DNA of 64,000 bases from an uncultured Chroococcidiopsis sp. (GTDB lineage: Bacteria; Cyanobacteriota; Cyanobacteriia; Cyanobacteriales; Chroococcidiopsidaceae): the NCBI GenBank assembly GCA_964248365.1, contig CAXTYC010000005.1, forward strand, positions 109,531-173,530, written 5' to 3'. The notes beneath the pieces are model-generated. The model was not told the origin of the DNA and searched no databases. It saw nothing but the letters and a program-made list of their open reading frames with translations. The position numbers and the translations under genes are program-made. Below, piece by piece: positions 1 to 6,662 of this stretch (position 1 is the first letter of the stretch; the number at the start of each line of letters is the position of its first letter).

Positions 1-434
1 TTGTCATCGTCCTGTAATGCAACAGTAAGAGCAGGAAGTGCTATTTTAGCTCTAGCGCCCATGCTTCCTAAAGCCGTTGCCGCACTGGAGCGTACAATCG
101 GACTTGTATCTTTTAGTGCTATGGCAAGAGCTGGAGTAGCTGACTGGGCTCCTATACCCATGCTGGCTAAAGCTGATGCCGCATTGATCTTCACTTTTTC
201 ATCGTGATGCCGCAAATTGCTTGCAAGAGTCTCAACAGCTGGCGAACCACATTTTCTTAAAGCCGCAATAGTAAAAATCCACTCCGCCGTATTGTTTAAT
301 TTTTTTATATGGCTGTTAATGTCTGCCTGGGAGCATTCTTTTGCCCAAACATTATTGTTCGGTAGATAACAAAAGAGGCAAAATAAAGTAATTTGTAACC
401 CTATAATTATTTTTTCTTTTTTGTTCTTATTCAT
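1..434 (-). CDS. HEAT/PBS-lyase-like repeat protein, N-terminal part (runs off the window edge)
   Basis: Not in the ORF track. Minus-strand translation from the ATG at 434 gives MNKNKKEKIIIGLQITLFCLFC... then DEKVKINAASALASMG..ATPALAIALKDTSPIVRSSAATALGSMG..ALPALTVALQDDD, which are typical HEAT repeats after a hydrophobic N-terminus. Confidence 0.8.
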   Translation of the reverse strand, partial: MNKNKKEKIIIGLQITLFCLFCYLPNNNVWAKECSQADINSHIKKLNNTAEWIFTIAALRKCGSPAVETLASNLRHHDEKVKINAASALASMGIGAQSATPALAIALKDTSPIVRSSAATALGSMGARAKIALPALTVALQDDD

Positions 435-1201: not shown

Positions 1202-2617
1202 TCAATTATCTTTCTGCTGTTTGGTAGGAAAATGGAATGTGCTGTCAGCCACTGCACGTACTTGGGATTTGAGTGCTGGTGGTGCTACTTTTTCTGCCTG
1301 CTCAAACAAAGCAGTTGCACTTTTGGTATCCCCATTAACTTTACGCAGAACTGCTTTACCAACCAAAGCTTTGAGGTGATTGTTGTCCTGAGCTAGAATT
1401 TGGTCATAGACATTTTCTGCATCAGCCGCTTTGCCCATAATTTCATACAACTGTGCTAGCTTTAAGCGCAAATCAATACGCTGAGGCTCTCGTTGAATAA
1501 TTTGCTCAAGCTGCTTTGTGGCTTGTTCAAACTGCCCAGTTCGTTGTAGAGCATCGATATTTTCTATAGCATTGTTATTATTAAACTGAGGTTGAAAAAA
1601 TCGCTGGGAGCCTATGAGCAATATCAAAAGCATTGTGACTGAGCCAAGAGTTATATATAGTAATGACCTACGTTTTAATACGTTATTACCAGGCGAAAGT
1701 AAACTACTAGCACTTTTTACTTGTACTTGGCTATCTGAACTGAAAAGATTTTGCGCTGCTGAGGAAGGCAATTCTTGCTGTGACTGATACTTGTTTGGTA
1801 ATGTACGGTTGAGCAAATTGAGGATTTGATGCTCTAAACCGGGATTATGAACTTTATTTAACTCCCAAACTACCCAAAGCAGTGAAACAGCTGCACCTTT
1901 AGCTTCGAGCCTTGCCACATTATTATTCTGAATCAGCGGAACAAATGAATGGAAGATTTGATATTTAGCTTTTACAGCATTAAGATGTGCGGTTAATGGT
2001 TGTAGTTTTTTTGTAATTATTTGTTGGCTGACAGAGCTAGGTTCTAGTAAATCTGATTTAGTAAGTATCAATGCTAAAGGATACTCTAAACCATTCAAAT
2101 AAACTAGACTAGTGAGTGCCATTACTTGTTCAAAAATATCATCCAATACTTGAACATAAGCATCACTATGTCTTAGAGCATAGGCATCAATAAACACACA
2201 GCAACCATGAGAATTAAATACCATGTTGCGAAATTCCAGATTATGAATGTCGCAAATTTCACCAGGAATGTCATTCCAACTGAAGTTGCATAGTGTTTGT
2301 TCACCCCACAAACTTTGTTTTTTCAAGCTGAACTTAAAGTTCACAATTTTCATTGTGGGTGGCGGATATTGATTAGTCTGAACAATATAGTTAATAATTT
2401 TTTCAATATTTTCCTGTACTTGATCAGTTTGGCAATCAAACCACAATTTTTGCGGGTGTGCTGTTAGGTGATTAGCTTGTAGTTCTACGTAGCTACCCAC
2501 GATAAAAACCGTTTTACCTACACCTCTTTGACCAATGCTCAGTAAGTTAAATGTTTTTGTTTGTGCCAAATTTTTAGAGAATACATTTATCTTTTTCTTT
2601 CCGACTCTTGCAGTCAT
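1202..2617 (-). CDS. P-loop (TRAFAC-like) GTPase domain + TM helix + C-terminal TPR repeats
   Basis: G1 GQRGVGKT, G2-like YPPPT, G3 DIPGE, G4 LTKSD; hydrophobic LLYITLGSVTMLLILLIG; TPR-like GQFEQATKQLEQIIQREPQRIDLRLKLAQLY. Confidence 0.8.
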   Translation of the reverse strand: MTARVGKKKINVFSKNLAQTKTFNLLSIGQRGVGKTVFIVGSYVELQANHLTAHPQKLWFDCQTDQVQENIEKIINYIVQTNQYPPPTMKIVNFKFSLKKQSLWGEQTLCNFSWNDIPGEICDIHNLEFRNMVFNSHGCCVFIDAYALRHSDAYVQVLDDIFEQVMALTSLVYLNGLEYPLALILTKSDLLEPSSVSQQIITKKLQPLTAHLNAVKAKYQIFHSFVPLIQNNNVARLEAKGAAVSLLWVVWELNKVHNPGLEHQILNLLNRTLPNKYQSQQELPSSAAQNLFSSDSQVQVKSASSLLSPGNNVLKRRSLLYITLGSVTMLLILLIGSQRFFQPQFNNNNAIENIDALQRTGQFEQATKQLEQIIQREPQRIDLRLKLAQLYEIMGKAADAENVYDQILAQDNNHLKALVGKAVLRKVNGDTKSATALFEQAEKVAPPALKSQVRAVADSTFHFPTKQQKDN

Positions 2618-2903
2618 ACTGATTTCTTCCTGTCTACGCTATATAAGGTTAAGTTATAAAAATTTTTCGCAATTAGCAGCAGCATATCATTCAGTCATCA
2701 GCAAAAAAAGTTAAATTTATTACAAGGATATTCTGTAATTATACATAAATAGTCTCTACTGAGTAATAAATATTGCTATAAACTACACAACTACTGAAAA
2801 ACGCCTGAGAAATCTAATCCCTACTACTTGGTACTAATAAAAGTATAAAGCGAAAGTATATTGGACAACTCCTACATACAATAAGGCAATTAAGCAACAA
2901 CTA

Positions 2904-4874
2904 CTAGCGCAGGGGTACAAAACCAGCCTGTTTGATCATTTGTTGTCCTTCTGAGGAAAATAGCAAATTAGCGTAGGCTATACCAGCCTGTTCATCAACA
3001 CCGCCCTTTTGCCTAATAACGATAAATAAGCGTCTAGTTAGGGGATAAGAACCATTGGCAAAGGCAGTTATATTCACACGATTTTTATTATTTATATCAA
3101 AAGGATATACAAAATACTGGTTATCTATAGTAGATAAGGGCAAAGGATTGATAGTAGCTAAGGACACAGAATCTACAGATTTTTGCCCAATCACCTCACT
3201 GGCTGTAGCATAGCCAATTCCTCCAGGAGTTTTAGCAACGGAACGAATAGAGTCTGTTGTAGTTTCTACTTGTCGTACATTTTGGGTGAATTCGTGTCCT
3301 GCCAAGACTTTTTCTTTTATAAAATCCGCAGTTCCGCTAAATTGCGGGTTACGGGTAAAAGGAGTAATTGGCAGGTCAGAACCACCTACTTGTTTCCAGT
3401 TAGTAATTTTCCCAGTAAAAATATCTCTAATTTGATTTAAGCTTAAACCAGGAATAAGTATCTGGCGATTGACATAGAAGGCAATTCCATCGATCCCAAT
3501 CGGTATCTGTTCTAAAGTAAAGCCAAGTTTTTGGGCTTGTAGGAATTCAGATTCTTTTATAGGTCGAGAAGATTGGGCAAAACTTAATTGACCTGCAAGC
3601 AACATTTTAATTCCAATTGTCGACCCATGTTTGTGTGGAATTGGGTCGGTATAAATTAATTTAAATTGCGGGTGAGCTTGCGCGATCGCTTTTACTATAG
3701 ACAAAGATCGCAGTGGTGCAAAGCTAGTAGAACCTCCGTATTTAAAACTTCCCTGCGGTACATTGGGTACATCGGCTAATGTTTTGTAGACAACTGAATT
3801 TCTTGCCCAAGAAATTGAATCACGATAGTTTGAATTAGAAACACTCGCTAGCCGCAAACCATAAATACCAAAAGCCAAAGCTAAAACACTAGCAACAATG
3901 CCTATTAAGAGTAACAGTTGAGTTTTTTGGTGTGCCAACACAAAATCATGATTAGCACTTTTATTTAAAGTTTGACTTAAATATTCTGTGTTAGAAATAT
4001 TCTTCTGGTTAGTTTTTTTTGCCCTAGATGTATAAACATCTGCTGTATTGTCTGCTACTGTTTGTCGATTAAGCCAGGTTTTAATAGGTTCCTTAGTTTT
4101 ATCTTTAACAACTAAACTGCGAGTGTTAACCTTTGCCAGGTACGAGGGCTGATTTTTTTTACCTAAAACTTGTTTATAGGACTGCAATTGTTGCTTGTAG
4201 CTCTGATAAACTTGTATAGCAGTAGTTTCATCAGGTGTAGGCTTTTGGGCATCTAGATCTGTTGTATCTAGGTTCAAACCATAAATGACATAACTGGTGT
4301 ATATTGAAAGAGTTGCTATTTGCTGCTCGTAGGTTCGCCCATTTAGATCGATTACCGTTTCCTGTTCATATACGGGGACAAACATTTCTAGCAATTCCCC
4401 TTGTCGCAAGGCAAAAAAGCTGCGCTGTCGAACAGCCAGCCCAATTGCTACCCCAGCTCGAGCTGGTTGGTAACTCCACAAGTTTGGTATCACTTTAGTC
4501 TTTAAGCAGGTTGATGGGTTGTGTCGATCTATCAGTGCTACTGGACCTTTTTCCAAACAAGTAAAAATATTAGCAAGTTGAAACTCAAACAATGGCTCTG
4601 TTAGGTAATAGCAGACGAATAATGGTACATCACTACGACCTATGTCATCTGCTCCATCGTTGTATAACCAGCCAAACAAGGTTTGCTCTGGTGATACTTG
4701 ATACAAGTAAACAGCACGATATCCAGGCGGAGGGGGATTGTAAGAATCCCAATACTGAGATACACGTTGCATGAAGGCTTGCTGTATCTCTAGAGGCACA
4801 GAGGTACTAGCAAGGGTTCTAAATCCCCTAAGTGCAAAGCTGGTGTAAACAAGTTGACCGAGAAATAAGTACAT
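2904..4874 (-). CDS. GAP1-N2-like N-terminal domain + TM helix + PstS-like (PBP2) substrate-binding domain
   Basis: The C-terminal half has YGGSTSFAPL, GSTIGIKMLL, IGIDGIAFYVN, SGT and YPLTRRLF (PstS-type fold). TM is LLLLIGIVASVLALAFGIYGL. The N-terminus QLVYTSF..GF...D.IGR resembles GTPase-associated protein 1 N2 domains. Confidence 0.75.
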   Translation of the reverse strand: MYLFLGQLVYTSFALRGFRTLASTSVPLEIQQAFMQRVSQYWDSYNPPPPGYRAVYLYQVSPEQTLFGWLYNDGADDIGRSDVPLFVCYYLTEPLFEFQLANIFTCLEKGPVALIDRHNPSTCLKTKVIPNLWSYQPARAGVAIGLAVRQRSFFALRQGELLEMFVPVYEQETVIDLNGRTYEQQIATLSIYTSYVIYGLNLDTTDLDAQKPTPDETTAIQVYQSYKQQLQSYKQVLGKKNQPSYLAKVNTRSLVVKDKTKEPIKTWLNRQTVADNTADVYTSRAKKTNQKNISNTEYLSQTLNKSANHDFVLAHQKTQLLLLIGIVASVLALAFGIYGLRLASVSNSNYRDSISWARNSVVYKTLADVPNVPQGSFKYGGSTSFAPLRSLSIVKAIAQAHPQFKLIYTDPIPHKHGSTIGIKMLLAGQLSFAQSSRPIKESEFLQAQKLGFTLEQIPIGIDGIAFYVNRQILIPGLSLNQIRDIFTGKITNWKQVGGSDLPITPFTRNPQFSGTADFIKEKVLAGHEFTQNVRQVETTTDSIRSVAKTPGGIGYATASEVIGQKSVDSVSLATINPLPLSTIDNQYFVYPFDINNKNRVNITAFANGSYPLTRRLFIVIRQKGGVDEQAGIAYANLLFSSEGQQMIKQAGFVPLR

Positions 4875-5003: not shown

Positions 5004-6662
5004 ATGAGTCAGATTCCTAATCCTGCCAACTGGGCTACTACTAATCGTAGTAGCAGTAACTATCCTGGTATTAAAATTAATCGTCGTGTCAGTACATTGG
5101 TGCAAGGTTCTTTGATTTATGCCTCACAATTGATGAAGCATCAGAGATATTCTCGTCGTCGCTCTCAAGGAATCACCTTCAAGGCTAAAGCATTAGCTTT
5201 AGTAATTGCTCTAGGCGCACTGCCAATATTAGCTAGCCGCGCAAGTGCTAGCTACTTTACTAACCAATCATTTCCAAATCCTGAAATTCAAGCTCAACAA
5301 GCTCGTATTGATAATTCAGACGATATTGTATCAGGGTCGCCCAGCGGGCTACCGTTAACCCTGGTGATTGAGACTATCGTAGCCTCATTACTGTTGGTTG
5401 GTTTACTCACCGCTTTTTTTGCCAATCGTAGTATGCGTCCAATCAAAGGAGCTAGTGAACAAGAGAAGAAACCAAATGTAGAACCAGATGAATTTTCATC
5501 ACAATTGGTAACTAGAGATAATTCTACTCTTCTGGAGACAATAAAGGTTGCACAGGACGGGGCAGACGTAGCTGAGCAGTCAAAGCTAGTGACAGAAATA
5601 TCTTTGCGTATTCGTCAGGCTCAGTACTTGGAAGATTTACTCAAAACTACGGTTAAAGAATTGCGCCGCGCAATTAAAGCTGAGCGAGTATTTATCTATC
5701 GCTTCAACCCTGACTGGAGCGGGTTTGTTGTAGCAGAATCTGTGCTGCCTGGTTTGCCTTCATGCTTGAAAATAAAAGTAACTGATACTTATTTCGCTGG
5801 GTCTAATTCTGGGATAGAAGAGTATAAAAATGGTCGTATTTGTGTTAACGACGACATTTATGCAGCAAACCTGAATGATTGTCACATTAAGTTGCTAGAG
5901 CAATTTGTCATCAAGGCACAGATGATTGCACCAATTGTAAAAAATCATGAGCTTTTCGGTTTAATAATTGCTAATCAATGCTCAGAACCCCGTGCTTGGC
6001 AGCAGCACGAAATCGATTTATTCGTGGAGTTGGCAAAGCAAGTTGGGTTTGCAATCGAGCAAGTAACTTTCCTAGAAAAACAAGAAGATTTAGCAGAAAA
6101 AGCTAATTTATTGACTGAAATTACTCTCCGCATTCGCCAAGCACAATTTTTGGAAAATTTGCTTAATACTACGGTTAAAGAAGTGCGACGCGCATTGAAA
6201 ACAGACCGAGTGTTGATCTATGGGCTTGATTCTAGTAACTGGGATGGAATTGTGGTAGCAGAATCTGTTGCTCCTGGCTGGCCCCAAACCTTGCGAGTAA
6301 GATTAAATGACCCGTGTTTCAGAAACCAGTATGTAGAAAAGTACAAAAATGGTCAGATTACAGCTATCAATAATATTTATCGCTCCTCAGTAGAGGATTG
6401 TTACCGCAAAATGCTAGAACAATTTGCAGTGAAAGCAAATTTGGTAGCACCAATTCTTAAAAATAACGAGTTACTCGGTTTGCTAATTGCTCATCAGTGC
6501 AGTGAACCGCGAGATTGGCAACAGGATGAAATTGATTTATTTGCACAGTTGGCTATTCAGGTAGGTTTTGCCATTGATCAAGTAAGTCTGACCGCACAAA
6601 TGGAAGAACAAACAGGAATTGAAAAACTTCAAGAACAATTTGAAGTTAATGAGCTTCATTAA
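5004..6662 (+). CDS. Membrane-anchored protein with two cyanobacteriochrome-type GAF domains and no output domain
   Basis: Two hydrophobic segments, then GAF1 (VVAESV..DTYF..DCH) and GAF2 (VVAESV..DPCF..DCY, DXCF type). The protein ends about 25 aa after GAF2. Confidence 0.85.
   Translation: MSQIPNPANWATTNRSSSNYPGIKINRRVSTLVQGSLIYASQLMKHQRYSRRRSQGITFKAKALALVIALGALPILASRASASYFTNQSFPNPEIQAQQARIDNSDDIVSGSPSGLPLTLVIETIVASLLLVGLLTAFFANRSMRPIKGASEQEKKPNVEPDEFSSQLVTRDNSTLLETIKVAQDGADVAEQSKLVTEISLRIRQAQYLEDLLKTTVKELRRAIKAERVFIYRFNPDWSGFVVAESVLPGLPSCLKIKVTDTYFAGSNSGIEEYKNGRICVNDDIYAANLNDCHIKLLEQFVIKAQMIAPIVKNHELFGLIIANQCSEPRAWQQHEIDLFVELAKQVGFAIEQVTFLEKQEDLAEKANLLTEITLRIRQAQFLENLLNTTVKEVRRALKTDRVLIYGLDSSNWDGIVVAESVAPGWPQTLRVRLNDPCFRNQYVEKYKNGQITAINNIYRSSVEDCYRKMLEQFAVKANLVAPILKNNELLGLLIAHQCSEPRDWQQDEIDLFAQLAIQVGFAIDQVSLTAQMEEQTGIEKLQEQFEVNELH

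Follow-up and report, generated by a model that had tools for sequence, protein, structure and literature searches.

A membrane-tethered GTPase and its predicted longin-like neighbor in Chroococcidiopsis: a candidate two-gene relative of the DO-GTPase/GAP1 systems

The present study concerns two neighboring genes in a stretch of 64,000 nucleotides (hereafter the window) of contig CAXTYC010000005.1 from an uncultured Chroococcidiopsis sp. (assembly GCA_964248365.1, positions 109,531 to 173,530, forward strand). The two co-oriented open reading frames (ORFs) described in an initial annotation are both real. One encodes a GTPase with a transmembrane helix and a TPR tail (P0001, 471 residues, 1202..2617, minus strand), the other a protein composed of an N-terminal domain (hereafter N-domain), a linker, a transmembrane helix and a PstS-like domain (P0002, 656 residues, 2904..4874, minus strand). 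On the minus strand the partner gene P0002 lies upstream and the GTPase gene follows after a gap of 286 bp. The architecture proposed for each product, with an N-terminal domain, one transmembrane helix and a C-terminal domain, was borne out by hydropathy and Pfam matches. The pair may constitute an undescribed bacterial link from outside conditions to a GTPase.

The GTPase domain of P0001 (residues 22–255, 1853..2554, minus strand) is of the TRAFAC type and DO-GTPase2-like according to PF19993 (E 1.5e-6, 28.5 bits, cut-off 27) and a structure model. PF19993 was also found at E ≤ 0.001 in 20 of 25 GTPase homologues. All four GTPase motifs reported initially are present and intact, namely the G1 P-loop G29-QRGVGK-T36 (residues 29–36, 2510..2533), G2 or switch I Y84-PPP-T88 (84–88, 2354..2368), G3 or Walker B D116-IPG-E120 (116–120, 2258..2272) and the G4 guanine-specificity motif T186-KS-D189 (186–189, 2051..2062), all on the minus strand. 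Since G29, R31, G32, G34, K35, T36, Y84, T88, G119, E120, T186 and D189 are invariant in 46/46 paired homologues, the motifs reflect more than chance; K187 is kept in 41/46. Judged by these residues, the active site of the GTPase is intact. A Walker B glutamate is the hallmark of DO-GTPases (PMC7159879). With E120 invariant and PF19993 above its cut-off, the suggested kinship to DO-GTPases was supported. The domain model has a predicted local distance difference test (pLDDT) value of 91.6, and Foldseek returned EF-Tu, YcjX, Arf/Arl, Rag and Ras for it at E ~1e-6 to 1e-5 without singling out one family. Cys pairs indicative of zinc ribbons are missing ahead of G1 in P0001.

Both transmembrane helices were located by hydropathy. 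The helix of the GTPase (residues 318–336, 1610..1666, minus strand) is preceded by three and followed by one K/R residue; in its family the excess lies on the N-terminal side in 32 and on the C-terminal side in 1 of 40 proteins. The partner helix (residues 320–338, 3861..3917, minus strand) is neutral here with one K/R on either side, and its family shows 87 against 22 of 141. The positive-inside counts uphold the N-in topology of both families, and both N-terminal domains most likely face the cytoplasm. The TPR repeats at the C-terminus of the GTPase (~residues 355–453, 1259..1555, minus strand), claimed before, could be verified with TPR_19 (E 6.9e-11); they are predicted outside and are optional in the family. 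In the partner protein a presumably cytoplasmic linker (~residues 175–315, 3930..4352, minus strand) separates the N-domain from the helix. It is poorly conserved, with an identity of 21–25% to two congeners compared to 66–68% for the flanking domains.

The N-domain (residues 1–170, 4365..4874, minus strand) begins with QLVYTSF..GF and carries D76-DIG-R80 further on, in agreement with both motifs described earlier (QLVYTSF-x-GF...DxxGR). Its family is sharply bounded, with 179 of 185 representatives at E < 1e-10. No match was obtained in Pfam, NCBIfam or the sequences of the Protein Data Bank. The proposal that this domain is GAP1-N2-like stood in part. The Pfam family GAP1-N2 (PF20013) remained silent, with 0/35 N-domains at E ≤ 10 and 0/201 genomes over the cut-off. 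On the other side, the motifs Q-x-x-Y-T-S, GF, PP and G-x-D-x-x-G-R are common to the N-domain and GAP1-N2, and language-model feature matches to GAP1-N clusters (0.90, 0.86 and 0.85) give a lead only. A weak profile match was found by hhalign between 250 N-domain and 13 GAP1-N2 sequences (pairwise E 0.0015, probability only 16.6), the score of 26.65 exceeding all 100 column shuffles (maximum 19.64). The GAP1-N2 profile comprised the true seed and 12 of 13 collected relatives; one partial match was omitted. No support came from comparing the profile with one GAP1-N1 sequence (E 0.52) or with five aligned sequences from the partners of further DO-GTPase-like genes in cyanobacteria (E 0.32 and 0.41). 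True GAP1 proteins showed both GAP1-M and GAP1-C; neither had a Pfam match in P0002 at E ≤ 1, where the variable linker and the transmembrane helix follow the N-domain. Judged by its sequence, the N-domain is probably related remotely to GAP1-N2 but lacks the GAP1-M and GAP1-C parts.

The structure model of the N-domain (pLDDT 89.3) contains strands at residues 3–13 and 17–23, a helix at 28–41, strands at 53–61, 64–72 and 84–91 and a helix at 97–109. The overall element order is E-E-H-E-E-E-H-(E)-H-E, which we take to be the longin order. In a structure search, for which a Z under 8 may mean merely a common arrangement, TagF was the best match (Z 8.2, root-mean-square deviation (rmsd) 3.7, 157 residues aligned; a second TagF Z 6.2), followed by a Lokiarchaeal longin (7.3), C9orf72-SMCR8 (6.5), MON1A-CCZ1 (6.0) and FLCN-FNIP2 (5.9). 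The longin chains (Z 7.3, 6.5, 6.0, 5.9 and 5.6, rmsd 3.7–4.5) reach middling scores, and their class dominates the list; judged mainly by title, 17 of the top 20 rows are longin- or roadblock-type chains. TagF, a type VI secretion system (T6SS) repressor, also has a similar D-x3-R loop with a subsequent Pro (D81, R85 and P88 compared to D76, R80 and P84 here). In secretion clusters the binding partners of TagF are Fha, Hcp or TagZ, whereas the linked partner here is a GTPase. The N-domain has no Pfam TagF match, and the neighboring ORFs, to which the look for T6SS genes was confined, are of other kinds. The fold of the N-domain is predicted to be longin/TagF-like. Neither this fold nor the link of R80 to the GTPase described below had been pointed out initially.

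At the C-terminus of the partner a PstS-like domain had been proposed. PBP_like_2 (PF12849) matches residues 375–642 with E 4.6e-34, and alignment to 4q8r and 9l8j supports an S-type binding domain (residues 375–656, 2907..3752, minus strand). The residues of the anion site are kept (S382, T383, S384, S418, S436, R437, D462, R508, S513, G514 and T515). Nearest solved relatives are PBP-1 of C. perfringens (4q8r, E 1.5e-19) and Sll0540 (9l8j, E 1.8e-18); the PstS family model TIGR02136 stays with 140.2 bits under its cut-off of 206.6. Similar to PBP-1 and Synechocystis Sll0540/SphX, the domain has its discriminating Asp replaced by Ser. It differs from these proteins in forming the C-terminal part of a protein that crosses the membrane once and is encoded apart from pstCAB. 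In accordance with the reported lack of pstCAB, matches to pstC and pstA are absent from the contig of the window, and the three pstCA loci of the genome are all on other contigs. Affinity and selectivity are lower in S-type proteins, and Sll0540, encoded outside Pst operons, is of unknown function (PMC13614923). Two more genes for membrane-anchored PstS-like proteins that do not belong to the pstCA loci (C45:10622-11908 and C3:244588-245667) are the closest paralogues of the binding domain (E 2e-80 and 1e-76), one of them with a Cys-rich N-terminus. Similar PstS-like genes adjoin the module at L107, L112 and L125, and in congener G602 (L240:6452-8427) the partner gene is split by a frameshift inside the binding domain.

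To what extent the two genes occur together was determined in samples of 201 genomes of the class and 301 of the order, which have a few genomes in common and contain kin that are not independent. In the class sample the N-domain was found in 21/201 and the GTPase in 17/201 genomes; all 17 are nested in the 21 and each has one pair within ~3.1 kb. In the order sample, where the GTPase was counted at E ≤ 1e-30, the N-domain occurred in 31/301 and the GTPase in 22/301 genomes, again all nested, with 18 of the 22 adjacent and 4 unlinked. A separate collection of 52 GTPase loci was obtained among the matches listed in a one-pattern scan, which does not show absence elsewhere. Among these, 50 are titled cyanobacterial, from Gloeobacterales to Nostocales, and 35 have an N-domain gene within the fetched flank in four arrangements (downstream on the same strand 24, upstream on the same strand 6, convergent 4, divergent 1). 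The gene order of the window is a minority arrangement, common to 5/5 congeners. Adjacency is conserved (17/17 and 18/22 genomes, 35/52 loci), and the N-domain is genetically tied to the GTPase. These counts contradict a chance neighborhood of an orphan membrane-anchored PstS protein and a GTPase. The reversal of the commonest order, the gap of 286 bp and the relatives that keep the partner without a GTPase would fit such an accident, but nested co-occurrence and adjacency extend over many families and all four arrangements, and R80 of the N-domain tracks the GTPase as described below. We consider unrelated neighbors extremely improbable and a functional partnership of the two proteins very likely. 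A mirror-tree correlation of 0.745 (permutation maximum 0.36) was set aside and is not used, because kinship alone gives such a value.

The loop that joins strands 4 and 5 contains D76-x-x-G-R80 (4635..4649, minus strand) and with it a candidate arginine finger or GTPase contact. R80 is present in 45/46 GTPase-adjacent copies and in 217/250 overall, and the same G-R occurs in 13/13 true GAP1-N2 domains. Copies from GTPase-positive genomes have R80 in 21/21 cases (best copy in 21 of 22), compared to only 2/12 genomes that yielded no intact GTPase, a result that held for all 12 in a second search at E ≤ 0.001. Among 31 positions of the N-domain that are conserved in the GTPase-positive group, R80 is the one most lost in these GTPase-negative genomes, followed by N72 (kept in 3/12) and Y45 (4/12); 15 of the 31 are kept in 12/12. 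Two genomes, G327 and G331, retain a stop-containing GTPase remnant just upstream of the partner and show R80P and R80S, respectively. In congener G378, which is 86–87% identical to both, GTPase and R80 are retained. On the tree, GTPase absence amounts to six changes, and R80 is missing in four of these lineages. As the single arginine most specifically lost with the GTPase, R80 suits catalysis no less than binding.

The pair is most likely a system of the DO-GTPase/GAP1 kind outside the canonical GAP1-N2 systems, working like a pair of a longin GTPase-activating protein (GAP) and a small GTPase. Whether it is a two-protein, membrane-tethered cyanobacterial switch derived from DO-GTPase/GAP1 systems and cut down to a GTPase and a GAP1-N-like domain, we regard as evenly balanced. 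One membrane would hold both proteins with their N-domains inside, and the longin-fold domain would contact the GTPase via the R80/N72/Y45 surface; such direct binding is probable. The N-domain would speed GTP hydrolysis with R80 lent as a finger, a GAP function for which the case is equally strong on either side. Arginine fingers from longin domains are described for SMCR8, FLCN and NPRL2 (bioRxiv 2020.04.15.042515, PMC8213707, PMC9473554). FLCN-FNIP2, NPRL2-NPRL3 (GATOR1) and SMCR8-C9orf72 share with the pair, as modeled, a longin-like fold that is teamed with a small GTPase of the TRAFAC class, an exposed and conserved arginine in a loop, and a connection to nutrient-binding components at the membrane. 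Here, in contrast, a single longin-like domain without DENN and with GF for GP would be the putative GAP, both partners carry a transmembrane helix and sequence similarity is lacking. The interchangeable C-terminal module would give input or location, in this case as a periplasmic S-type phosphate/oxyanion binder, and ligand-dependent clustering or co-localization would change how often the tethered proteins meet. Clustering is favored over a rigid movement through the helix because the long variable linker parts the domain from the membrane. Control by the PstS ligand is a tentative suggestion. Somewhat more doubtful still is the full picture of a longin GAP with a trans arginine finger that is gated by its own periplasmic phosphate-binding domain, a prokaryotic nutrient receptor operating as GATOR1 or FLCN do on Rag GTPases.

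Several observations weigh against this interpretation. No N-domain gene is nearby at 17/52 GTPase loci and at 2/3 GTPases of this genome, and six related genomes keep a ~600-codon frame of the N-domain-transmembrane-PstS type with no GTPase found. The starred (strong) branches of the tree force just three label changes for GTPase absence; of the four R80-loss lineages two are long, unsure branches and two are well supported and short to moderate. R80 is retained in the GTPase-negative genomes G370 and G096. The longin Z-scores of 5.2–7.3 at an rmsd of ~4 Å are in the range of common arrangements, and Foldseek on the N-domain model gave nothing at E ≤ 0.001, though the same names were listed. 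The fingers of eukaryotic longins presumably sit in the loop that links strands 4 and 5, and R80 is a putative counterpart of them. In eukaryotic longin GAPs the finger is adjoined by a GP motif where strand 2 begins, and similar longins occur in Asgard archaea (PMC12290439). Here this motif is GF, with G17 in 244/250 sequences followed by F, L or Y. The D81/R85/P88 loop of TagF binds Fha, not a GTPase (PMC5995506), and loops similar to that of TagF were reported in A. baylyi (bioRxiv 2025.12.08.692957). The GTPase has an invariant P-loop arginine of its own, R31. Finally, by the criterion applied here the anion site is altered in 20/51 R80-positive PstS fusions and intact in 31. It is intact in 1/11 R80-negative fusions, several of which are close kin; a six-genome sister clade without GTPase has T383P and R508F in the three copies checked, a single event.

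Part of this evidence also fits the same partnership with another role of the longin-fold domain, which could be an exchange factor, effector or scaffold with R80 as a binding residue. The GTPase would then hydrolyze GTP with its own Arg31 and Glu120, both invariant, and possibly dimerize, as has been proposed for DO-GTPases (PMC7159879). Such a role is in line with the protein-binding D81/R85/P88 loop of the best structural match (PMC5995506) and with the fact that longins are more often exchange factors than GAPs (PMC12290439, PMC13408092). The loss of one arginine, most specifically with the GTPase, fits catalysis at least as well, however, and canonical GAP1-N2 keeps the same arginine. We consider this alternative rather unlikely, yet it is the first one to be kept in mind besides a longin GAP.

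The PstS domain is one of many interchangeable C-terminal modules. Among 34 N-domain ORFs from genomes, WD40 was found in 13, PBP_like_2 in 2, pentapeptide in 1, Roadblock in 1 (weak) and nothing recognizable in 17. From 150 listed representatives 98 were scanned; 31 under 300 residues and 21 that are WD40-like by pattern were omitted. The 98 carry PBP_like_2 (10), a phosphonate-binding domain (1), Peripla_BP_6 (1), caspase (11), WD40 alone (6), Roadblock (12, one with V4R), pentapeptide (2), GAF (2), SepF (1) or no recognized module (52). Two fusions lead to the cell-division protein SepF and to Roadblock plus V4R (P0201 and P0185). The earlier statement that the pair lacks an effector and is rewired as a receptor holds at this locus; for the family a receptor-only reading fails because some of the swapped modules, caspase-like and WD40, resemble domains of conflict systems. 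A more specific receptor had also been suggested, in which ligand-bound PstS docks on the TPRs outside and switches the GTPase inside. PstS and TPR domains are indeed both predicted outside, and they are paired in 5 congeners and at L112 and L125. Docking is unsupported, though, because TPR and PstS do not co-vary. GTPases at 26/52 loci carry TPRs, and the nearest partner of these is of the PstS type in just 3 cases, compared to 12 other partners (caspase-WD40 3, Roadblock 4, unrecognized 5) and 11 without a partner nearby. Moreover, the PstS-type partner at L109 adjoins a GTPase without TPR. Such docking appears very improbable.

The caspase-like and WD40 modules would also suit a minimal conflict or defense system, where GTPase and longin-fold domain would form a threshold switch and the C-terminal domains would either detect invaders or damage to the envelope or serve as effectors, with PstS captured and possibly repurposed. 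The nearest described kin are predicted conflict systems (PMC7159879). The patchy presence (17/201 and 22/301), recent losses and the frameshifted G602 copy point in the same direction, as do the caspase-like modules (11/98, the catalytic G-H-G motif being found in only 4/13 inspected) and the downstream HEAT-repeat gene, which codes for a NACHT C-terminal helical domain and is matched weakly by HEAT entries of PADLOC. PADLOC gave no match for the GTPase or the partner protein, which does not by itself exclude a defense role. Against such a system, the block is syntenic amid housekeeping-type genes in 5/5 congeners, the PstS domain is conserved like the N-domain and not hypervariable, the GAP1-M, GAP1-C and FNIII parts are missing and a sensory nature is plain for other C-terminal domains (those of three binding-protein families, GAF, V4R and Roadblock). 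We regard a conflict system as unlikely, more so than an exchange factor or scaffold.

Among described systems, DO-GTPase/GAP1-N2 (Kaur, Burroughs, Iyer, Aravind 2020, PMC7159879) shares with the pair a TRAFAC GTPase with Walker B glutamate, a GAP1-N-like partner gene, mostly in downstream position, anchoring in the membrane with binding domains on the extracellular side and variable fused modules. The described systems combine zinc-ribbon GTPases, a three-domain GAP1 and an FNIII protein (PMC7159879); N-terminal zinc ribbons or a second GTPase in the operon are frequent in them without being universal. In contrast, the pair consists of two genes only, without zinc ribbons, GAP1-M, GAP1-C, FNIII protein or a second GTPase beside it; its N-domain is below Pfam detection, and its modules are mostly binding proteins, WD40, caspase-like domains and Roadblock. 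The phyla given for GAP1-N2 systems are actinobacteria, firmicutes, planctomycetes, verrucomicrobia and chloroflexi (PMC7159879, section 29). The text of that paper, as far as it is drawn on here, contains neither PstS nor cyanobacteria in its phylum list; its neighborhood source data could list cyanobacterial cases. A different comparison is offered by MglA and MglB, a bacterial small GTPase and its Roadblock GAP (PMC13408092). Both cases combine a GTPase with a regulator of the profilin/roadblock/longin type, here a predicted one, in two genes, and 12/98 members of the N-domain family carry a fused Roadblock. GTPase family and regulator fold subtype are different, and the pair described here spans the membrane with outside domains. 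In the open literature no paper on the cyanobacterial pair or on a longin fold of GAP1-N was found, subscription journals being mostly uncovered. The general theme is anticipated, because a 2026 preprint mentions, as unpublished observations, that profilin-longin-like domains often occur with GTPases in anti-selfish-element systems (10.64898/2026.10.19.760177).

Longin-domain GAPs are traced to eukaryotes and Asgard archaea in the literature examined, and DO-GTPase/GAP1 systems are known by prediction only, as large multi-gene conflict systems (PMC7159879). If a longin GAP is at work here, GAP1-N, and TagF by descent, would be a bacterial branch of longin GAPs with the D-x-x-G-R loop as shared catalytic site, and the pair would give cyanobacteria a further way to sense across their membrane, by means of a small GTPase and a set of exchangeable input domains. 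With two small soluble domains (170 and 240 residues) and one candidate catalytic residue, GAP1-N as a GTPase regulator and bacterial longin fingers are directly testable.

The surroundings of the pair were inspected as well. A HEAT-repeat gene with a transmembrane helix and a NACHT C-terminal helical domain (NCH4, 519 residues, window 1..434, minus strand, L001:13875-15434) lies downstream of the GTPase. It was rejected as a third component and is attributed to synteny because, although 5 congeners have it behind the pair, this holds for just 1/52 wider loci. The divergent gene 5004..6662 (plus strand) codes for a protein with two GAF domains (PF01590, E 6.1e-40) and hydrophobic segments at its N-terminus, which by its motifs resembles a PixJ-type cyanobacteriochrome without chemoreceptor tail. 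It diverges from the partner gene in 5/5 congeners and was likewise rejected as a component and read as synteny; GAF-like genes adjoin N-domain genes at several other loci. No FNIII repeat was found in these two flanking genes, the only neighbors scanned. Promoter and terminator scans stayed at chance level (15 compared to 15.5, and 4 compared to 2.9), and a crude look for Pho-box half-sites gave single scattered matches only.

Two further GTPase copies are present in the genome, both on other contigs and without an adjoining N-domain gene, which occurs once only. One (L006:7600-8871, plus strand) presumably neighbors tatC and a lytic transglycosylase-like gene. The other (L007:7124-8509, minus strand) has TPR and lies between what we take to be shikimate kinase-like and sfsA-like genes, a few kb from a cluster of presumably phage-integrase-like genes (L007:1-3483). 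Both orphans may share the one longin partner of the genome in trans. A plasmid search gave one distant GTPase.

Beyond this family, at least four other cyanobacterial DO-GTPase2-like families (L188-L205) were observed, each followed by a gene without GAP1 Pfam match. These partner genes open with a GAP1-N-like strand, several sit after a dynamin-like gene, and the partners at L188 and L189 carry a D-x-x-x-R loop ahead of a strand. Possibly they represent further undescribed GTPase-longin pairs. Canonical systems were encountered as well, with GASH, GTPases and GAP1-N1-PNPase at L187 and a GAP1-N2 system from another class of the phylum at L207.

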